DNA from: a phage
DNA length: 50,192 nucleotides
Strand: one strand, 5' to 3'
Sequence record: PZ445416.1
Of the stretch, positions 20,806 through 50,168 are shown in pieces. The notes beneath the pieces were generated by a model. That model saw nothing but the letters and a program-made list of their open reading frames with translations. It did no database searches and was not told the origin of the DNA. Each line of letters opens with the position of its first letter. Position 1 is the stretch's first letter. The position numbers and the translations under genes were made by a program.

Positions 20806-20833
20806 TTGTATGTCCTCGTCGTTAGTGTGATTG

Positions 20834-20862
20834 CATTGTATGTCGCATTTACTTTTATTGCA
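20834..20862 (-). promoter_or_regulatory. sigma70-type promoter for cor-like gene
   Basis: Minus strand TTGCAA (20862-20857), 17-bp spacer, TACAAT (20839-20834), about 28 nt before the start codon. Confidence 0.55.
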
Positions 20863-20966
20863 ATAGCACGATTACAATTTTCGTGTAACAGGTGTCTATT
20901 TTTGTAACCGGAGCGGGTGTTACAAAATCCACCCCATCCGACCGCAGAGGGGTATGATAAAAACTC

Positions 20967-21022
20967 TATATAATATATATAGATAGATAATATTTAATTT
21001 TAGCTTTATATATATAATTATT
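20967..21022. repeat. TA-rich tract with element TATATAATATATATAG
   Basis: TATATAATATATATAGATAGATAAT... within the 525-bp non-coding gap between cor and the exonuclease gene; the same 16-mer recurs at 40251-40266. Confidence 0.7.
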
Positions 21023-21270
21023 GTTGTGTAACAGTTGTCTATCGTGTAACTGGTGATTTGATTGATTCGTCAAATTTCTATCATATACGTTCAAAATTTA
21101 ATCAATATGGATTCTACTTGTAGCTATCTCTGTATTTCTAAGAAAAATCGGTTACAAGTATTACACAGTAGACATCACATAAAAATAGACTTAAGCCATT
21201 GATTCCGTTAATGCTGGTTGTAACTTGAGCGATATAGACACGCTATTACACACCAATTACATGTATCCGA

Positions 21271-21298
21271 TTGACTAAACGCTGTTAATGGCTATAAT
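21271..21298 (+). promoter_or_regulatory. sigma70-type early promoter for recombination module
   Basis: TTGACT (21271-21276), 16-bp spacer, TATAAT (21293-21298); leader CATCGTAAACGAAGGAG before the ATG at 21330. Confidence 0.6.
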
Positions 21299-21329
21299 GG
21301 ATTCATCGTAAACGAAGGAGATAAACGCA

Positions 21330-26651: not shown

Positions 26652-26696
26652 AAAAAACGCGTAGAAGGATGTTAACCCGCTACGCGTCGTTTGTTT
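26652..26696 (-). terminator. terminator/attenuator-like hairpin between HTH gene and primase
   Basis: Minus strand stem CGCGTAG / CTACGCG with 15-nt loop followed by TTTTTTA; long loop makes it weak. Confidence 0.4.
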
Positions 26697-27148
26697 TAAC
26701 TAAAAATGCTATTCGTCGTTCCAATATCTTCCTTCTTCACGACTCGCATAAACTTCTTGTTTTTGCATCGCTTCTCAAGGCACTTTCCGTTCCCATCAAA
26801 CTTCAGATCGAATCGTAGCCATGCCGCCCGGAATCCTTTGCAACCCTGTCGGCGGTAAGCACGATGCGCTGCTTCAGCGCCTTGCCATGAAATCATATTG
26901 CGATCTTTCCAGCCTTGCACCGTCTGATTGCTAACTTTTAGAGCCTTTGCGCAGGCCGCAGGACCACCGTAATATTCGATAAGAGCATCCAATCGCGCTC
27001 TCAGTCCTGCGCGCGTTTCTTCTTTATGGATATAAAATCCGCAGCGCTGGCGAGGCTTTTTATCTTTACCGCGTCGTGTTCCGTTGTTACCATTGATGTG
27101 ACGTTTATCGATTTCACCAGTAGACTCTGCGATACGTTTCATATTCAT
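26696..27148 (-). CDS. HTH DNA-binding protein (YdaS/Cro-like)
   Basis: Start moved to MNMKR after AGGAG; segment GGPAACAKALKVSNQTVQGWK resembles YdaS/XRE-type helix-turn-helix; basic N-terminus. Confidence 0.5.
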   Translation of the reverse strand: MNMKRIAESTGEIDKRHINGNNGTRRGKDKKPRQRCGFYIHKEETRAGLRARLDALIEYYGGPAACAKALKVSNQTVQGWKDRNMISWQGAEAAHRAYRRQGCKGFRAAWLRFDLKFDGNGKCLEKRCKNKKFMRVVKKEDIGTTNSIFS

Positions 27149-27161
27149 CTTAATTCTCCTG

Positions 27162-27204
27162 TAGCACTTTTTGCTAAAAACGTTTACTGTATGCCGTGTA
27201 TTAT
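27162..27204 (+). promoter_or_regulatory. Box-A cassette (putative phage promoter/operator) upstream of helicase
   Basis: TAGCACTTTTTGCTA, 22 bp, TATTAT; in the divergent gap between the HTH gene and helicase. Confidence 0.6.
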
Positions 27205-27242
27205 ATCGTAAACGATACAACGATTCAAAGGATTAAATAGCC

Positions 27243-29741: not shown

Positions 29742-30455
29742 ATGAAAGACTTTAATGATATTGAAACCATCGACTTTGCAGAAACTGGTTGCTCATTCAC
29801 TCGCGAAGCAATAGCATCAGGCGGTTATTATCAGGCATTGAAAACGCCAACCTGCAAAGAGATTTCAGGGCGTCGATACAAGGGAACAAATACCCCTGAC
29901 GCTGTTCGTGATTTATGGTCAACTCCGCGCGAGGTTATTGCATACCTTGAGGGGCGATACGGAAAATATGATCTCGACGCTGCGGCAAGCGAAGAAAATA
30001 AAGTTTGCGATAAGTTCTACTCTCAGGAAACAAACTGCTTAAAACGTTGGTGGGGTAAGAATAAGCACGTTTGGTTAAACCCCCCTTATAGCAGACCCGA
30101 TATATTCGTCAAGAAGGCTATTGAGCAAATGGAGCACAATAACCAGATCGATATACTGTTACCCGCCGATAACTCTACGGCGTGGTTTACTGAAGCTCGA
30201 CAGAACGCAGCTGAAATAATCTGGATTGAAGCGGACTTGACTGAGGATATTGACGGCAATGAATACGCGCGATCCGGTCGCCTGGCTTTCATATCCGGTG
30301 AAACTGGAAAGGCCGTAGACGGTAATAACAAAGGTTCGGTAATTTTTATTATGCGCGAACTTAAAGAAGGTGAGGTGCAACAGACTCACTACATCCCAAT
30401 CACAAGCATTTGCCCTTCGGTGAAAAACAAACGAGCAAAGGTGAGGAAAGTATGA
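29742..30455 (+). CDS. dam: DNA N6-adenine methyltransferase (phage Dam-like)
   Basis: Catalytic NPPY motif (WLNPPYS) and upstream acidic SAM-binding region; 237 aa. Confidence 0.75.
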   Translation: MKDFNDIETIDFAETGCSFTREAIASGGYYQALKTPTCKEISGRRYKGTNTPDAVRDLWSTPREVIAYLEGRYGKYDLDAAASEENKVCDKFYSQETNCLKRWWGKNKHVWLNPPYSRPDIFVKKAIEQMEHNNQIDILLPADNSTAWFTEARQNAAEIIWIEADLTEDIDGNEYARSGRLAFISGETGKAVDGNNKGSVIFIMRELKEGEVQQTHYIPITSICPSVKNKRAKVRKV

Positions 30456-34419: not shown

Positions 34420-34462
34420 AATATACCCGATACGAGATCGGGTGTTTTAACAAAAAGTGCTA
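34420..34462 (-). promoter_or_regulatory. Box-A cassette (minus strand)
   Basis: Minus strand TAGCACTTTTTGTTA, 22 bp with IR CCCGAT/ATCGGG, TATATT, leader CATCGAAACGAAACGA. Confidence 0.6.
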
Positions 34463-34571
34463 TTTGTACCTTTTTACGTGAAGTAGCAACTCCCCCTCCT
34501 GGTCGCAAAGATTATGCTCGCTTTCGTTACTAGCCCTCATTGAAGTGAGTAACAGACTCAACAACCCTTGC

Positions 34572-34983: not shown

Positions 34984-36552
34984 TTAACCCATCAGTCGAG
35001 GATTGATGAAAACAATATCATCAATCCGGCAAGTGTAGTTCATCTCTTCGAGCGTTATCAGCAGGCTGTCGATTCGCTCAGATACTTTCTGTTGACCGTT
35101 GAACGGCGTAACGTTACGGCACTTTGCAACAATGCTATGAATCGGAGCGCGCCCTTTATTCTTCTTTGCGATCTCAGTGATAACATCAATCAGCTTACGA
35201 GATTCAGCCTCATCACCAGCATACCCGGCGGCGCTTGCGGACGACAGATAAGTCCTGGAAAGCTCATTGAAAATCATAATCGCTTCCTGCATTGTCTCAA
35301 GATCAATCTCACGATTAGATCGGTTCGGTGATTCACCCTCCCAATTCTTGATCGTGTGAAGAACTGAAGCAATGCGCAAGGCGTGCTTATCGAACTTACC
35401 GAGATGACCGCGTAGCATTGAGTGAGAGTATTTGCCCCCGGCGGCGAAATCAGGCTCCATCGCCTGGCGAGCAAGGTTTAATTCACGCATAGCGTTACGG
35501 CTTACAGAGAGAACAACGTTGTCTTCCTTCATGATGTTGTGAACGAGTCTGTAATATTTGCTAACCAGTCCGCGATCGACTTCTTTATACAATGCATCAC
35601 CATTTTCATCACAAAGAATACGAGTACCTAAAAGCGGTTCCTCGCGAACCAATAGGAAACGCTCAGATACACCGATACCGCGCTGGCCTGCGTCCATGAT
35701 ACCCTTGATTGTTTCATCCTGCGCAATGACGCAGATCGAACCGACCGGGCAAAGAGATAAGTTGTTGTCTTGGTTTGAACGCGCGACCTCCATATGGTTT
35801 TTATCCCACGCCTTAAGGATAAGTTCGCTGTTTGATTTCTTATCAGAGCCGCCATAAGTCAGGCCGAGCAATGTGTTGATTGCTGTCGCCTCATCAGAGA
35901 TTACTGAGAAGTGACCTTGAACAGCCGCCACCTTCGCAAGACCTTCAGGTGTAGGATCTGATACAGCGAAAACAATATCAGCCATCTTCTTGATCTTTTC
36001 TTCCAGTTTTTCCTTGTCCTCGTATAGCGCTGCCGTCGTGTTACCCTTCGGGTCGTTTTTAATTTCCTTCTCGACCTGACGTAGCTGACTGGTTAAACGG
36101 ATACGTTCCTTTTTTCGCTCTTCATTCAGTCGCTGAATCTCTGCGCGCATAGGCGTAATCGCTGCGGAGTTAATCGCAGATTTACCTGTTGACGGTGGCT
36201 GGCTGATTACCATGTAAAGAGCGGTTGGTTGTTCTTCTCCGTGATATTGCACCCAAAACTTCCCGAGCATCGCGGCTGATATGCACCCAATGAAATGAGC
36301 GTACGCAGACGAAACAGGGAACTGTACAGACTCGGCCTTTGCTTTTGCATATTCGAATACCAGGTTATCGCCACCTAACGAAATCAGAGGGAACTTATCG
36401 TTGCCGCTATTGATATCGATCGGATCTTGCCAAAATGAAACTGAGTCACCATAGCTGTTTTCACGAATTGCTATCGCCACCGGATTAACTCCAGTGCTAT
36501 TGGCGATCTCAATAATCTGTTGGTAATTCAGTTTTGGCTTAATATTAAACAT
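34984..36552 (-). CDS. P-loop NTPase of unknown function
   Basis: Start moved to MFNIK after AAGGAG; Walker A-like QPPSTGKSA, then long coiled-coil and helical regions; no further family assignment possible. Confidence 0.6.
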   Translation of the reverse strand: MFNIKPKLNYQQIIEIANSTGVNPVAIAIRENSYGDSVSFWQDPIDINSGNDKFPLISLGGDNLVFEYAKAKAESVQFPVSSAYAHFIGCISAAMLGKFWVQYHGEEQPTALYMVISQPPSTGKSAINSAAITPMRAEIQRLNEERKKERIRLTSQLRQVEKEIKNDPKGNTTAALYEDKEKLEEKIKKMADIVFAVSDPTPEGLAKVAAVQGHFSVISDEATAINTLLGLTYGGSDKKSNSELILKAWDKNHMEVARSNQDNNLSLCPVGSICVIAQDETIKGIMDAGQRGIGVSERFLLVREEPLLGTRILCDENGDALYKEVDRGLVSKYYRLVHNIMKEDNVVLSVSRNAMRELNLARQAMEPDFAAGGKYSHSMLRGHLGKFDKHALRIASVLHTIKNWEGESPNRSNREIDLETMQEAIMIFNELSRTYLSSASAAGYAGDEAESRKLIDVITEIAKKNKGRAPIHSIVAKCRNVTPFNGQQKVSERIDSLLITLEEMNYTCRIDDIVFINPRLMG

Positions 36553-36581
36553 CACAATAAACTCCTTAGTTGACGGTGTAA

Positions 36582-36624
36582 ATGATACACCGCCAATGGT
36601 ACACGCGTTTTGCAAAAAGTGCTA
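36582..36624 (-). promoter_or_regulatory. Box-A cassette (minus strand) upstream of P-loop gene
   Basis: Minus strand TAGCACTTTTTGCAA, 22 bp, TATCAT, IR GGTGTA/TACACC. Confidence 0.55.
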
Positions 36625-36628
36625 TTGG

Positions 36629-37045
36629 TTATAAGTATTTGGCCTCAAAGGTTGTGCCGTCTGCGATACTAAAACCAACCTCTTCGCGAAATAAGGTCCA
36701 GCGACAACCATCTTCATCAAAGATGTAACCAGCTACGCCACCGAGAGCGCGACCGCTTTCAACCTGGTAACGCTTGCCAACTTTGAATGATTTTTTCATT
36801 GGGTTGCGATGGTCAAGCCCGGTGCACTTGAGCGTCTTTGTTTTCAACTCAGTGAACTTCGCGAAGAAGATTTCATCAGATCCGTGAATCTGTAATTCAT
36901 CATGCTTTTCAAGTTTTAAATACTTCCCGCATTTTAATTTTACTTCGCGAGTGCCATCATAGCGCTCACGACCTTTGTATAGGTTGTTTACTTCAAATCC
37001 TGTGATTTTATCTGCGTGAGTGCATTTCAGTTTGATGGATTTCAT
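36629..37045 (-). CDS. hypothetical protein
   Basis: 138 aa, RBS CAGGAG, downstream of Box-A cassette 37082-37124. Confidence 0.5.
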   Translation of the reverse strand: MKSIKLKCTHADKITGFEVNNLYKGRERYDGTREVKLKCGKYLKLEKHDELQIHGSDEIFFAKFTELKTKTLKCTGLDHRNPMKKSFKVGKRYQVESGRALGGVAGYIFDEDGCRWTLFREEVGFSIADGTTFEAKYL

Positions 37046-39130: not shown

Positions 39131-39173
39131 ATTATGCCAAATCACACCGATCGAGTTTTAACAAAAAGTGCTA
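39131..39173 (-). promoter_or_regulatory. Box-A cassette (minus strand)
   Basis: Minus strand TAGCACTTTTTGTTA (stop of the methyltransferase-like gene inside box), 22 bp, CATAAT, leader CCTCATCGAAACGAGA. Confidence 0.6.
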
Positions 39174-39862
39174 TCCGCGATCGCTTTAAAAAATCCCCTG
39201 GGTGATAGGGATCGTATCAACTTAGTTTTGGCAGATTTGCCGCCTAGCTTGCTGTGCTGCGCAGAGTACCCGTCAGGCAGGCTTACAGGTTTTCTTTCAG
39301 GCATGACAAAATCGTCAGAGGTCCACAGACAAGTTTTCTTCGGGTAAGCATCGCGCGGCGCAATATACATAGGGAACCAGGGATGCGCGTCATTCTCAGG
39401 AAGATAGCCGCCATACTCCCAGGGATTGAAGGAGTGATTTGGTTTTCTCCACACAGACGACAGGACGCTAACCGGATTCTCAATGATGTAAGTCACACCC
39501 AGGCTATCGCCAATGTTCGCGGCAATCCTTGCGGTGGCAACGGCCTTTTCCTGGAATAACGGATCGCGTTCACGCTTTCTTGCGAAGTGGGCGGCACCGC
39601 TAACAGCCAGGTCGGTACACGGAGGGAAAGCCATAATGAAATCCGGCTTGCCATACACACCAGCGATAGCATCACGCTCAAACGCTGCGTCAATGAACAC
39701 GTTCACATACTCAATGTTCGGATGCTCCACCCGGGCATTGTACTTTGCATAATCCCCGTGATCGGCTCCGTCAAAGTTGAAGCACATCACCTTGTGACCT
39801 TGCTTAGCCAGTTCATGACCAGCAAGACCGGAACCGTCGAATAGCGACCAGATTAATTTCAT
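39158..39862 (-). CDS. C5-cytosine methyltransferase-like protein
   Basis: Start moved to MKLIW after AGGAG; motif order FDGSG (I), FPPCTDLAVSG (IV, Thr in place of the usual Gln), IIENP (VI); short at 234 aa. Confidence 0.55.
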   Translation of the reverse strand: MKLIWSLFDGSGLAGHELAKQGHKVMCFNFDGADHGDYAKYNARVEHPNIEYVNVFIDAAFERDAIAGVYGKPDFIMAFPPCTDLAVSGAAHFARKRERDPLFQEKAVATARIAANIGDSLGVTYIIENPVSVLSSVWRKPNHSFNPWEYGGYLPENDAHPWFPMYIAPRDAYPKKTCLWTSDDFVMPERKPVSLPDGYSAQHSKLGGKSAKTKLIRSLSPRGFFKAIADSTFC

Positions 39863-39895
39863 TGCAAATCTCCTACTGATTGGTTGATGTGATGA

Positions 39896-39939
39896 ATCAT
39901 ACACTGCCAGCCTGACCAAGTCGTTAGCAAAAAATGCTA
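39896..39939 (-). promoter_or_regulatory. Box-A cassette (minus strand) upstream of C5-methyltransferase-like gene
   Basis: Minus strand perfect palindrome TAGCATTTTTTGCTA, 23 bp, TATGAT, leader CCAATCAGTAGGAG. Confidence 0.6.
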
Positions 39940-40020
39940 TTCCAATAGTTGCTCATTATTCCACCAGTAATGGAATATCTGGAATAATTGCGATCCCGAT
40001 TGATCTCGAATGATGAAATG

Positions 40021-40090
40021 TGATTGTTGCATGATGTGCAACTGTTGATGTGATTGTTGCTTGGAATGCAATGATTGTGAGAGGGAGGAT
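40021..40090. repeat. iteron-like direct repeats and short palindromes
   Basis: 13-mer ATGTGATTGTTGC at 40028 and 40058 (30-bp register), plus palindromes TTGCATGATGTGCAA and TTGC-N6-TGCAA. Confidence 0.55.
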
Positions 40091-40129
40091 TTAGTGTTAC
40101 CCGGTTCGCCTGGTGGTCATCTCCATTTT

Positions 40130-40144
40130 TAGCAAAACGTACTA
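40130..40144 (-). promoter_or_regulatory. isolated Box-A-like site within AT-rich hub
   Basis: Plus strand TAGCAAAACGTACTA (minus strand TAGTACGTTTTGCTA); no hexamer at the cassette position. Confidence 0.4.
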
Positions 40145-40230
40145 TCGATTACACTTTAACTTGTCACGATTGTAATATTTGTCTAGAATCGCACTTGTGA
40201 CAAAATTACGCACTGTGACGCATAACAATA

Positions 40231-40300
40231 GACATATAGATATATGTATATATATAATATATATAGTGTTTTTTTTATTTATATATATAGATAATCATAT
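40231..40300. repeat. TA-rich tract with element TATATAATATATATAG (second copy)
   Basis: TATATGTATATATATAATATATATAG...ATATATATAGATAAT inside the 630-bp non-coding hub between the divergent early clusters. Confidence 0.7.
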
Positions 40301-40548
40301 TGTAATAGTTGTGTATAGCTGTCTTACATTGTCTAGCGTACTGTTGGCATATTTCTATCTGCATGTTTATATATACAGTACTTTTTTGAGAGCTATATAT
40401 TTCTATGGTTACTCTAGACAGCTAGACAAATGTTACACGGCTTAAAATTGACTCGCAGGCATTGACAGCTCTACATCACGTTGTCACAATGGCAATTGTT
40501 GACACATTATGACGCCATTTACACACAAATAGACAAAGAGGATATATT

Positions 40549-41064
40549 ATGAGCAATACCAATCAGGAATTAAAAATCACCGATATGATTCGCCTAACCT
40601 GTGATGCAATGTACCGCGACAAAGGCATGACCGAGTTCTCTTTCGTGGCTGATGATATGGCCCTAGAAGCAGCGCGATTCTACTTCCGTGGCCAGGAGGT
40701 AAGCGATGCCGATCTTGAATCTGCCGCTGCCGGATGGGTGGACCAGAACCAGGGGGAGGTAGAGAAGCGATTCAAATCTGCTTTCATCACTCCAATCATT
40801 ACCCGACACTTTTGCAAGTATGGCAAGGTGGCAAAGGTGAAGGTAGGCCGGAATGACGCGGCAATCACGATGATAACCGTTATCGTTACAGACGAAGAGG
40901 TTCCAGTGAAGAAACGCCGTAGCCGGAAAAAAGTTAGCCTGGCCGACTGCCTGGACTCGTTTGATGTTGATGTTAGCAAGCTATCAGATAGCGAGTTAAT
41001 GGTTCGTGATGTGAATGAGATCGTGCGCCAGATGAAAGCGCATATTGAAAAGTGTGGACTGTAA
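40549..41064 (+). CDS. hypothetical protein (first gene of rightward early cluster)
   Basis: 171 aa, RBS AAAGAGGA, directly downstream of the AT-rich hub. Confidence 0.5.
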   Translation: MSNTNQELKITDMIRLTCDAMYRDKGMTEFSFVADDMALEAARFYFRGQEVSDADLESAAAGWVDQNQGEVEKRFKSAFITPIITRHFCKYGKVAKVKVGRNDAAITMITVIVTDEEVPVKKRRSRKKVSLADCLDSFDVDVSKLSDSELMVRDVNEIVRQMKAHIEKCGL

Positions 41065-41070
41065 GGAGAG

Positions 41071-41316
41071 ATGAGTATGAGCAAGATTAAGCATGACGCC
41101 CTGAAAGGTATCTTGATGCGACTAAACCCAGGCGAAGCATTCCAGCTTAACCCCGAGACGTTTGGATTCAATGGTGATTATCGTACAACCTTCGAATTTG
41201 TAAGGTATGTAAAGAAAGAGTTTGGATTCGAAGTTATTCACGCAGGTCTTATCAATGGCATCCAGACATTCATCTTTAAGCCAAATGAGATTCGTTGCTT
41301 CACGATGATGAAATAG
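41071..41316 (+). CDS. hypothetical protein
   Basis: 81 aa, RBS AAGGAGAG; its stop TAG is the first triplet of Box A at 41314. Confidence 0.5.
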   Translation: MSMSKIKHDALKGILMRLNPGEAFQLNPETFGFNGDYRTTFEFVRYVKKEFGFEVIHAGLINGIQTFIFKPNEIRCFTMMK

Positions 41317-41585: not shown

Positions 41586-42056
41586 ATGGCGACAATTACC
41601 GTATTCCTGGCTAAAGATGAGATTGATGGCGAAATGTCATTCTTCGCGTTTGAGCACAAGACCGGATCGCACTGGCACATGTACAGTCACTACACGGTTA
41701 TTGATATCAACTCATACGCTTGCGATTCGCTAAATGAAAAACTTGGTCGATTCATTGAGCATGTTAAATTAAGAGATGGTGGCGAGTGGAATGATAAGCA
41801 TGAAGGTCGACGCATGTGTGACATGATTGATCCTGTTTATCTGGAGTCGTTCGAGCTTGATGCTGATGTTGCCATTAAGGTGAGAAAGTCGGGTGAATTG
41901 TTGCCAGGGATGCGTGTGCTGACTGGTTACTCGGGCCGTAAGGTGTGGCGCACTGTATCCAAGATTCGCCAGCGTTCGGCAACATGCTATAGCGTATTCT
42001 TTGATGATGGTTGGAATATGATTTCCGGCAGTGAGGTAAAGTATCTCACCAAATAG
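41586..42056 (+). CDS. hypothetical protein
   Basis: 156 aa; stop TAG is the first triplet of Box A at 42054. Confidence 0.5.
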   Translation: MATITVFLAKDEIDGEMSFFAFEHKTGSHWHMYSHYTVIDINSYACDSLNEKLGRFIEHVKLRDGGEWNDKHEGRRMCDMIDPVYLESFELDADVAIKVRKSGELLPGMRVLTGYSGRKVWRTVSKIRQRSATCYSVFFDDGWNMISGSEVKYLTK

Positions 42057-42096
42057 CACGAATTGTTAAAACCGGATCGGGGTATCTTGCTATAGT
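42054..42096 (+). promoter_or_regulatory. Box-A cassette
   Basis: TAGCACGAATTGTTA, 22 bp with IR GGGGTA/TACCCC, TGcTATAGT. Confidence 0.6.
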
Positions 42097-42884: not shown

Positions 42885-43076
42885 ATGGCTGACTTTATGC
42901 ACCAAATGATTGCAGTATTCAAAGGTAGCGAAGATGAGGAAGTAAAAGAGTGCTTTACTGTCGACAAGCCTTATAACGCTTCTCTGACCAGCTTCGGTAA
43001 CATCTCATTGCTTGATGATAATGGCGACCCCTGGGTATTCGATGAAGATACGGATTGCTTCGAAATTAAAGAATAG
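42885..43076 (+). CDS. hypothetical acidic protein
   Basis: Start at MADFMHQ after AGAGG; stop TAG is the first triplet of Box A at 43074. Confidence 0.5.
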   Translation: MADFMHQMIAVFKGSEDEEVKECFTVDKPYNASLTSFGNISLLDDNGDPWVFDEDTDCFEIKE

Positions 43077-43116
43077 CACTTTTTGTTAAAACGCGATCAT
43101 ATGGTTGCGATATAGT
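43074..43116 (+). promoter_or_regulatory. Box-A cassette
   Basis: TAGCACTTTTTGTTA, 22 bp, TATAGT, leader CACATCAACAACGAATGAGGA. Confidence 0.6.
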
Positions 43117-45720: not shown

Positions 45721-45923
45721 CAGCAGAAGATGCAGCGCGTGACGCAGTGGAAGGAATGCGCCCAAATACCTCCAGAATCGCACACTACTACAAATCTGAG
45801 GTGTCGGCAGTGCAATTGGTCCACGAAATTTTAATGCTACCACAAGTCGATTCAGCGCGCGTGGTGACGTGCTTAAAAAATTATTTTTGCATCACTATTA
45901 AAACGAATAGCACGAATTGCTAA
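45705..45923 (+). CDS. hypothetical protein
   Basis: 72 aa; stop TAA lies inside Box A at 45908-45922. Confidence 0.35.
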   Translation: MATIMTAEDAARDAVEGMRPNTSRIAHYYKSEVSAVQLVHEILMLPQVDSARVVTCLKNYFCITIKTNSTNC

Positions 45924-45950
45924 AACCTATCAAGGTGAATGCGCTATGAT
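45908..45950 (+). promoter_or_regulatory. Box-A cassette
   Basis: TAGCACGAATTGCTA, 22 bp, TATGAT. Confidence 0.6.
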
Positions 45951-49610: not shown

Positions 49611-49625
49611 TAGCACTAAATGTTA
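49611..49625 (+). promoter_or_regulatory. isolated Box-A site over the TerS leader
   Basis: TAGCACTAAATGTTA immediately downstream of extended -10-like TGgTAAAAT (49603-49611) and 18 nt before the TerS ATG. Confidence 0.5.
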
Positions 49626-49643
49626 AACAGAGAGGATGTATTT

Positions 49644-50168
49644 ATGAGTGAACCTAAGAACGCTCCCGTAGTCCAGGGGGGTAATTTCAAAGAGCTATAC
49701 AAGAAAAAGTTTGGCACTGTACTCGCGAAAAACCGGGCAATGACGCCTGAGCAATTATTCGATCTGTCAGTGAAGTATTTCGAATGGGCCGAGGACAACG
49801 CAATCAAGGCGTCAGAATCAGCCAGCTTTCAAGGTGGCGTTTATGAATCGCTTGTTCATAAGCCGCGCGTCTTCACCTGGACCGGATACCGACTGTTCAT
49901 CGGTGCAAGCGAGGCCGCAATCATTAAGTGGAAGCGAGAGGAAGAATACAGTGAGGTTATGGAGTTTGTGGAATCGGTAATCAACGAGCAAAAATTCCAG
50001 CTTGCCGCCAACGGTGTTATTAATGCCTCCTTTATCGGTAAGGATCTCGGAATCGATAAGCCAGCCTCAATCAATATCGAAAACTCGTCAGCTTCCGCAT
50101 CGACAGTAGTCGCCACTACTGAGGATGCAATGAAGGACGCAGTAAATAGCATTCTTGACATGCTTTAA
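49644..50168 (+). CDS. terminase small subunit
   Basis: Start at MSEPKN after AGAGAGGA; about 175 aa, directly precedes TerL in a circular reading of the window; assignment from position and remembered family resemblance. Confidence 0.6.
   Translation: MSEPKNAPVVQGGNFKELYKKKFGTVLAKNRAMTPEQLFDLSVKYFEWAEDNAIKASESASFQGGVYESLVHKPRVFTWTGYRLFIGASEAAIIKWKREEEYSEVMEFVESVINEQKFQLAANGVINASFIGKDLGIDKPASINIENSSASASTVVATTEDAMKDAVNSILDML

Follow-up and report, generated by a model that had tools for sequence, protein, structure and literature searches.

The largest non-coding gap of a T1-like phage genome as a probable left-end control region for packaging and divergent transcription

The DNA analysed here, referred to as the window, is the complete genome (50,192 bp; sequence record PZ445416.1) of a T1-like phage (Tunavirus, Drexlerviridae), and the subject of this study is its largest non-coding stretch, a gap of 686 bp at positions 39863-40548. 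This length holds if the leftward DNA methylase gene bordering the gap begins with the ATG at 39862, which lies downstream of a Shine-Dalgarno sequence and is most likely the true start. The opposite border is formed by the first rightward gene (40549-41064), a member of PHROG 11083 and the homologue of the first T1 gene; the two gene clusters diverge from the gap, as had been stated in an earlier note on this sequence. The second largest non-coding stretch comprises 524 bp (20806-21329), and all others are shorter than 190 bp. The window was opened at the large terminase gene (open reading frame 1-1584), and the small terminase gene (49620-50168, Pfam family GP3_package) is located 9.6 kb downstream of the gap.

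The gap region is 90-96% identical to the same gap in other Tunavirus phages (Sfin-3, SA12KD, XJA18 and others). In an alignment of the gap from 12 Tunavirus genomes, to which the counts given below refer unless stated otherwise, conserved and diverged blocks alternate: positions 39922-40150 are kept in all aligned genomes, T1 included, and the blocks 40150-40228 and 40300-40460 differ strongly between the clade containing the window and the clade containing T1. The layout can still be recognised in other subfamilies and genera of the Drexlerviridae, namely in Klebsiella phage KMI8, in TLS and in the Rtp-like phages MSK and SU57. We read the gap as the left-end control region of a T1-type genome, in which the start of packaging and divergent transcription are combined, and we consider this reading probable. 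Its main content is mostly the orthologue of a known region, the left end of T1 with the packaging start (pac) site and early promoters, and is to that extent expected; four of its components, that is, an array of dyads as pac candidate, an orphan copy of a repeat element, a cluster of ATTCCA words and a duplicated module of TA-rich DNA and boxes, were not found described in the accessible literature.

T1 is a classic T phage as well as a notorious laboratory contaminant, and in the accessible literature we found no base-resolution definition of its terminase recognition sequence, its early promoters or its origin. The comparison yields three candidates: a 15-bp dyad array for pac recognition, three early promoters, and the duplicated TA module for an origin or a master control of early expression. 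Knowledge of the pac signal bears on generalised transduction by T1-like phages and on the correct opening of genome records. Two open reading frames within the gap, one of 88 codons (40179-40445, running across the TA tract) and one of 44 codons, were rejected as genes, their frames being broken by insertions and deletions among relatives, which argues against coding by the 88-codon frame in particular. An Rfam search of the gap gave no match at E <= 1.

Probable packaging start in the left part of the gap

The features of this part are the following.

40013-40116, plus strand: zone of public T1-like record starts, the likely pac cleavage zone, with packaging rightward from here
40013: start of a contig of phage EC22.5-2
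40026: start of the records of T1, phi2457T, JMPW1, JMPW2, FCWL1 and Chapo
40080-40081: starts of the records of Shfl1 and S2_02
40094: start of the SH2 record
40114: start of the records of IME167 and Henu5_2
40018-40071, plus strand: array of two TTGC-N7-GCAA dyads (40027-40041 and 40057-40071), 30 bp apart, each preceded by a 13-mer
40072-40126, no strand assigned: purine-rich block GTGAGAGGGAGGA, then a short inverted repeat CCCGGTTCGCCTGG (40100-40113)
39938-39988, no strand assigned: ATTCCA cluster, two TATTCCA followed by two TGGAATA (39938, 39957, 39971, 39980), upstream of the leftward promoter

The left part of the gap (about 39990-40130) is best read as the pac region. Position 1 of the T1 record corresponds to window position 40026, the base immediately left of the first dyad, and the T1 records (NC_005833, AY216660) annotate 1-2800 as a repeat region; besides 40026, five distinct record starts fall within 40013-40116. 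The T1 pac site has been stated to lie in this untranslated region (PMC7718038), and that of TLS was restriction-mapped, by means of a submolar fragment, to the homologous gap (PMC11447400). For MSK, a forward packaging start was determined with PhageTerm at record position 36,862 (PMC8421802), which we find to map in the homologous gap, 39 nt right of its last dyad, and the SU57 record was opened at a step in read frequency (PMC7718038), approximately 18 nt further right, both read-based starts being located 39-60 nt from the dyad array. By homology, the gap of the window would lie at the start of the terminal redundancy, at the first headful end. Liebeschuetz and Ritchie reportedly obtained, in 1986, transduction of plasmids via a cloned T1 pac site.

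The same stretch had attracted attention in the earlier note for a 13-mer, ATGTGATTGTTGC, thought to be iteron-like. It does occur exactly twice in the whole window and the two copies are 30 bp apart, their positions being 40018 and 40048, not 40028 and 40058 as had been given; the palindromes listed together with it are present as well (TTGCATGATGTGCAA at 40027 and TTGC-N6-TGCAA at 40027 and 40057). These 13-mers turned out to be the left arms of the two TTGC-N7-GCAA dyads. The exact direct repeat has been lost in about half of the relatives, which carry ACGTGATTATTGC and GGTTGATTTGTTGC instead, and almost every Tunavirus locus retains the two dyads 30 bp apart; in the Rtp-like phage MSK there are even four, at spacings of 30, 17 and 30 bp. 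Since the dyad pair is conserved and packaging starts near such arrays, we infer that the array is a candidate recognition site of the small terminase. The small terminase would recognise the dyad pair, the first cut in the concatemer would fall within about 100 bp of it, the spread of cutting over such a distance being usual for headful phages, and headfuls would be filled rightward from this cut, so that roughly 2.8 kb to the right would become the proposed terminal repeat.

The block between the dyads and the orphan repeat copy (40072-40126) is conserved in the 12 Tunavirus genomes and recognisable in KMI8, MSK and TLS, and it is also in the homologous block that the read-based packaging starts of MSK and SU57 are located. 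The same stretch as its inverted repeat is occupied by an open reading frame of 12 codons at 40094-40132 (GTG TTA CCC GGT TCG CCT GGT GGT CAT CTC CAT TTT TAG), with a Shine-Dalgarno-like GGGAGGA upstream and several of the differences between relatives at third codon positions, a pattern that may be a coincidence. A further candidate, a Dam-regulated pac site of the P1 type, was considered on account of two GATC sites (39992, 40002; the whole genome contains 242) and was discarded: both read GATT in about half of the relatives, which makes control by Dam methylation as in P1 unlikely. The ATTCCA cluster is kept in 12 of 12 Tunavirus gaps and is approximately 85% identical in Drexlerviridae of Klebsiella and Enterobacter; in TLS it is swapped for a tandem palindrome, AGACCGATTGGTCT, and it is absent from the Rtp-like phages MSK and SU57.

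Predicted rightward and leftward promoters

Two types of predicted promoters, one for each direction, are found in the gap.

40161-40189, plus strand: P_A, TTGTCA, 17-nt spacer, TAGAAT (score 10/12)
40229-40258, plus strand: P_B, TAGACA, 18-nt spacer, TATAAT, inside the TA core (score 11/12; in 12 of 12 genomes)
40462-40490, plus strand: P_C, the proximal one, TTGACA, 17-nt spacer, CACAAT, with a TG extension (score 10/12)
39896-39940, minus strand: predicted leftward promoter of the methylase cluster, repeat ATAGCATTTTTTGCTAACG (39922-39940) with the -10 hexamer TATGAT (39896-39901)
40127-40145, minus strand: orphan repeat copy ATAGTACGTTTTGCTAAAA, one mismatch to the consensus, conserved in all relatives

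The alternative offered in the earlier note, a bank of strong promoters, has gained ground, as three rightward sigma-70-like promoters are kept in position among relatives. All three possess -35 and -10 hexamers with spacers of 16-18 nt and are located on the strand of the downstream genes, and of the 15 top-ranking sigma-70 matches genome-wide, 3 are gathered in a stretch of about 330 bp here. The scan of the region yielded 7 sites versus 4.5 expected. P_A occupies the same column in 11 of the 12 aligned genomes despite turnover of its sequence (TTGACC-17-TACAAT and TTGATT-17-TATGAT among them, TTGACT-17-TACAAT and TTGATT-16-TATACT in the two metagenomic relatives L023 and L025), its position thus being kept through five sequence versions. 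P_C passes the threshold in 7 of 12 genomes, with the -35 core TTGAC in all 12, and the annotations of two relatives, SA12KD and SA30RD, list it as a promoter. The comparison supports a cluster of predicted early promoters of the sigma-70 type; a literature search for transcript 5'-end data of T1-like phages retrieved none. P_A, P_B and P_C would be read by unmodified host RNA polymerase, and in tandem would express, presumably early, the first two genes (40549-41316), which are located in the proposed terminal repeat.

Leftward transcription seems to depend on a different promoter type, which is spread over the whole genome. The element ATAGCACNNNTTGNTAAAA has 24 genome copies against 0.15 expected, nearly all of them pointing in the direction of the genes (such as 42053-42071, 43073-43091 and 45907-45925 on the plus strand, 34445-34463 and 39156-39174 on the minus strand). 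In about 19 of them a -10 hexamer follows exactly 19 nt downstream, the spacer often containing a GC hairpin, and after the -10 comes a shared leader, CATCGAAACGA..GAGGA. The element is the 21-nt direct repeat aaATAGCACnnnTTGnTAAAA of TLS, where it was listed as of unknown function (PMC11447400). By our calculation, its palindromic core TAGCA-N5-TGCTA would have its centre near -42, as in class II activator sites. The copy at 39922-39940 differs from the consensus ATAGCACnnnTTGnTAAAA at three positions and is followed by TATGAT 20 nt downstream; at this -10, relatives (Klebsiella phage KMI8 among them) keep either TATGAT or TATAGT. The copy has the make-up of a repeat-type promoter of Drexlerviridae and is predicted to drive the methylase cluster by means of TAGCA-N5-TGCTA near -42 and the -10 hexamer. 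The copy at 40127-40145 has GAACCG in place of a -10 hexamer and, lacking a -10 at the fixed distance of 19 nt, is not an ordinary member of the family. No rightward (plus-strand) copy of the repeat type occurs in the gap, the first being located at 41313, after the second rightward gene, so rightward transcription must come from the canonical promoters.

Some neighbouring observations should be added. The genome contains two DNA methyltransferase genes, 29742-30455 and 39158-39862; one is of the Dam family (PF05869), and the one adjacent to the gap matches PHROG 757 and no Pfam family. On the minus strand at 26696-27220, directly upstream of the primase gene, lies the gene of a 174-residue protein containing a Cro-like helix-turn-helix (PHROG 2856, transcriptional regulator), a candidate for binding the repeat element or the boxes described below. 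At 39915-39923, inside the 3'-terminal part of the leftward repeat element, AAGTCGTTA is identical to the final nine bases of P22 pac (22 bp, in the version cited in PMC11447400); with an estimated chance expectation of about 0.07, this is probably a coincidence.

Several points weigh against the combined packaging and promoter reading. For this phage, the pac site and the promoters are assigned by homology and sequence comparison. The shared record starts at 40026 are not independent of each other, since several public records were opened to match T1, as was simply done for KanT1 (PMC13164509). The TTGC-N7-GCAA dyads are missing from TLS and so do not occur throughout the family. P_C of the T1-clade phages is poor in its -10 hexamer, which reads AACACT; P_B sits in a TA tract prone to -10-like hexamers by chance and has no counterpart in the second large gap. 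Finally, this reading gives no functional account of the TA cores and the ATTCCA cluster, although no other parts are as well conserved.

The TA-rich module and its second copy

The second large gap of the genome, termed hub 2 below, proved to share the layout of the central and right parts of the gap. Together with the pac site as boundary of the terminal redundancy and the separate type of leftward promoter, this duplicate of the TA module, 19 kb away, is one of the points absent from the earlier note.

40171-40185, plus strand: box site 1 TGTAATATTTGTCTA (motif TGTAAY-N3-TGTCTA), overlapping the spacer and -10 of P_A
40228-40300, no strand assigned: TA-rich core 1, containing P_B
40301-40336, plus strand: box site 2 TGTAATAGTTGTGTA (40301-40315, one mismatch) and a partial copy TTACATTGTCTAG (40324-40336)
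40361-40385, no strand assigned: second conserved TA block CATGTTTATATATACAGTAC
40414-40437, minus strand: box site 3, inverted, TGTAACATTTGTCTAG and an extra TGTCTAG, ending 24 nt upstream of the -35 of P_C
20806-21329, no strand assigned: hub 2, between the divergent cor and exonuclease VIII genes
20884 (plus), 21027 (plus) and 21247 (minus): boxes of hub 2
about 20953-21020: TA core of hub 2
21271-21298: strong promoter of hub 2, TTGACT-16-TATAAT, after the TA core

The tract of almost pure TA pointed out in the earlier note (40231-40300) has 88.6% A+T and is the most AT-rich 70-nt window of the genome jointly with the one at 20953, the only other region equally rich, which belongs to hub 2. 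The least stable duplex of the genome is found here too (60-nt window from 40234, -53 kcal/mol versus a mean of -82). Core 1 is almost invariant in the 12 genomes despite markedly diverged flanks. A cruciform in the core was dismissed, as folding was no better than that of shuffled sequence (z = -0.3). In the second TA block, CATGTTTATATATACAGTA is invariant in 12 of 12 genomes, the next base being C, A or G, and related TTTATACAGT motifs occur in L023, L025 and hub 2 of MSK. Within this block, GCATGTTTATATATACAGTA (40361-40380) agrees with the consensus of the LexA box, TACTGTATATATATACAGTA, in 16 of its 20 positions by our count, with a perfect right half; a LexA box was nevertheless rejected, ATG standing where the essential CTG is required.

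The enrichment of repeated words in the gap could be reproduced, with three of the eight genome copies of TTGTCAC/GTGACAA and four of the five of TGTCTAG/CTAGACA. The words GTCACA/TGTGAC and GTCTAG are specific to the clade of the window; phages of the T1 clade have CGATTAACA/TGTTAATC at the same places, with CGATTAACA three times at the place of box site 3. Six sites of the genome fit the 15-mer TGTAAY-N3-TGTCTA with at most one mismatch, against 0.34 expected; all are in the two large gaps, three in each, and the order of orientations is plus, plus, minus in both. The cores of the two gaps align to each other (E about 8e-7), and in each gap the inverted box is placed just upstream of a strong canonical promoter. 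Hub 2 is 92-94% identical in the T1, ADB-2 and LHE71 records, its core being invariant in the six genomes aligned. MSK also has two hubs, whose common core differs from that of Tunavirus (ATATCTATATATATCAACC..TTATTATTATT, plus words of its own), which suggests that the two copies evolve in concert and points to one sequence-specific factor acting on both hubs. A clean clade-specific swap of boxes did not hold, as hub 2 of T1, 94% identical to that of the window, keeps TGTAAC boxes; the box motif is hence a degenerate two-part site. The variant of the B-box (TGTCTA versus TGTATA) matches completely between the hubs in four of six genomes. The product of the first rightward gene, gp1, was tried as the box-binding protein: its structural model is confident but gave no significant fold match, and its sequence type does not track the box words. 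The TA core and the TGTAAY-N3-TGTCTA boxes would form a separate module, bound by a sequence-specific factor; the module would act either as an origin or in the tuning of early promoters.

A possible, albeit tentative, account of this module is a purely regulatory one: the boxes would be operators of a regulator of early genes, of phage or host origin, which shuts off or boosts the sigma-70 promoters of both hubs, and the TA core would act as bent or upstream-activating DNA or as a platform for nucleoid proteins, with no role in replication. The placement of the boxes fits this account, with box 1 overlapping the spacer and -10 of P_A, box 3 just upstream of the -35 of P_C, its hub 2 equivalent 10 nt ahead of the exonuclease promoter's -35, and a partial box overlapping the ribosome-binding site of gp1. 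Both hubs, moreover, precede operons with canonical and not repeat-type promoters, and the phage encodes the predicted transcriptional regulator at 26696-27220 mentioned above. Left unexplained by this account are the near-invariance of about 70 bp of TA sequence and the position of the core 160-250 bp upstream of the proximal promoters; no regulator has been identified, and the full match of B-box variants between the hubs in only four of six genomes speaks against it as well.

In the earlier note, direct repeats next to an easily melted tract had been regarded as the classic layout of a replication origin. In its present form, which we consider possible but doubtful, this reading takes the TA core 40228-40300 as the unwinding element and the flanking boxes as sites at which an initiator or a helicase loader of the phage binds; P_A, which reads into the core, would activate or prime initiation, as at T7 and T4 origins, hub 2 would be a second origin, as in the pair oriL/oriR of SPP1, and the rest of the gap could retain its pac and promoter functions. 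The AT-rich core with flanking boxes is indeed origin-like: its duplex is the least stable of the genome, it stays nearly invariant while the flanks diverge, a promoter points into it, and all six 15-mer boxes are confined to the two hubs in the same order, with cores that are alike within Tunavirus, and alike within MSK yet unlike those of Tunavirus, as though both hubs were read by the same factor. Among the gene products of the phage are, further, a primase, two helicases (one of DUF3987, encoded at 34984-36615, and one of SF2), a single-strand binding protein and the helix-turn-helix protein beside the primase; a polymerase is not encoded. The SU57 and TLS papers name no origin, no oriC-like origin being reported for SU57 (PMC7718038) and no lambda-type iterons, in the helicase gene or elsewhere, for TLS (PMC11447400).

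The iteron part of the claim has fared less well. Whereas an iteron origin has at least three direct repeats in register, the 13-mer has two copies, whose direct repeat is not conserved. The TGTAAY-N3-TGTCTA boxes, three per hub in mixed orientation, are to be viewed separately from the 13-mer; an adjacent AT-rich unwinding element is present. The 13-mers belong to the packaging part and not to the TA module, and the iteron reading is weakened by their location where packaging, not replication, is documented to start (T1, MSK, SU57, TLS). Boxes overlapping promoters or upstream of them are equally expected of operators. The gap contains no match to the consensus patterns of DnaA (relaxed box), IHF, LexA, CRP or ArcA, though DnaA and IHF sites are not obligatory for a phage encoding its own replication proteins; we identified no initiator with a specificity matching the repeats and no similarity of the region to plasmid origins. 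A literature search for replication initiation mapped to the site found nothing. Taken together, the comparisons neither support nor refute an origin role of the TA module. The more specific proposal, that the modules of gap and hub 2 are the pair of origins of T1-like phages, which evolve in concert, do not require DnaA, are activated by the promoter pointing at the core and have a phage protein that recognises them, seems rather unlikely to us.

That the repeats and words are random features of an AT-rich spacer whose sole function is to carry one promoter is practically untenable, for although short two-copy repeats are common in AT-rich DNA and the sigma-70 scan exceeded its expectation by so few sites, this is already contradicted by the comparative data, namely block-wise conservation across genera, motif counts far above shuffled controls and the paralogous second hub.

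Comparison with known systems

The closest counterpart is the left end of T1 itself, which is orthologous and about 80% identical over the shared part, is likewise bordered by the last leftward gene on one side and a PHROG 11083 member, the first rightward gene, on the other, and agrees with the window in its two dyads, its TA cores and the placement of its promoters. It differs in the diverged blocks 40150-40228 and 40300-40460, in the box word (TGTTAATC in T1, TGTCTAG here) and in having no methylase gene beside the gap; moreover, the repeat is annotated in T1, whereas the ends were placed by homology here. With TLS, the window shares the 21-nt repeat, of which two copies (39922-39940 and 40127-40145, both minus) are found in the gap, and its genome-wide co-orientation with the genes.

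In the end regions of P22, cuts are spread over about 100 bp, and a similar spread of apparent cuts is seen here. The window further resembles P22 and Sf6 in its small terminase, which is of the same Pfam family (GP3_package), and in headful packaging from a preferred start. In P22, however, the small-terminase gene itself contains the pac site, one asymmetric sequence of 22 bp, whereas the candidate site here consists of a 15-bp dyad that is repeated and lies in non-coding DNA, 9.6 kb upstream of the small-terminase gene. The pac region of SPP1 (pacL, pacC, pacR) likewise has repeated short sites at helical spacing beside the cut and unidirectional packaging; its terminase is unrelated and its box sequences are different, and the dyads of the window are candidate binding sites only. 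In T7, several tandem sigma-70 promoters (A1, A2, A3) are arranged at the left end before small early genes, beside or within terminally repeated DNA, as proposed here, but its terminal repeats are exact and direct rather than a headful redundancy, and the promoters of the window are predicted ones with weaker matches. As to the TA module, an AT-rich core flanked by repeated boxes is known from lambda ori and from oriL/oriR of SPP1, the latter also with two copies per genome, and a promoter reads into an AT-rich core at the primary origin of T7 and at oriF and oriG of T4; in comparison with all these origins, the boxes here are few and partly inverted and have no known initiator, the likeness being one of sequence layout.

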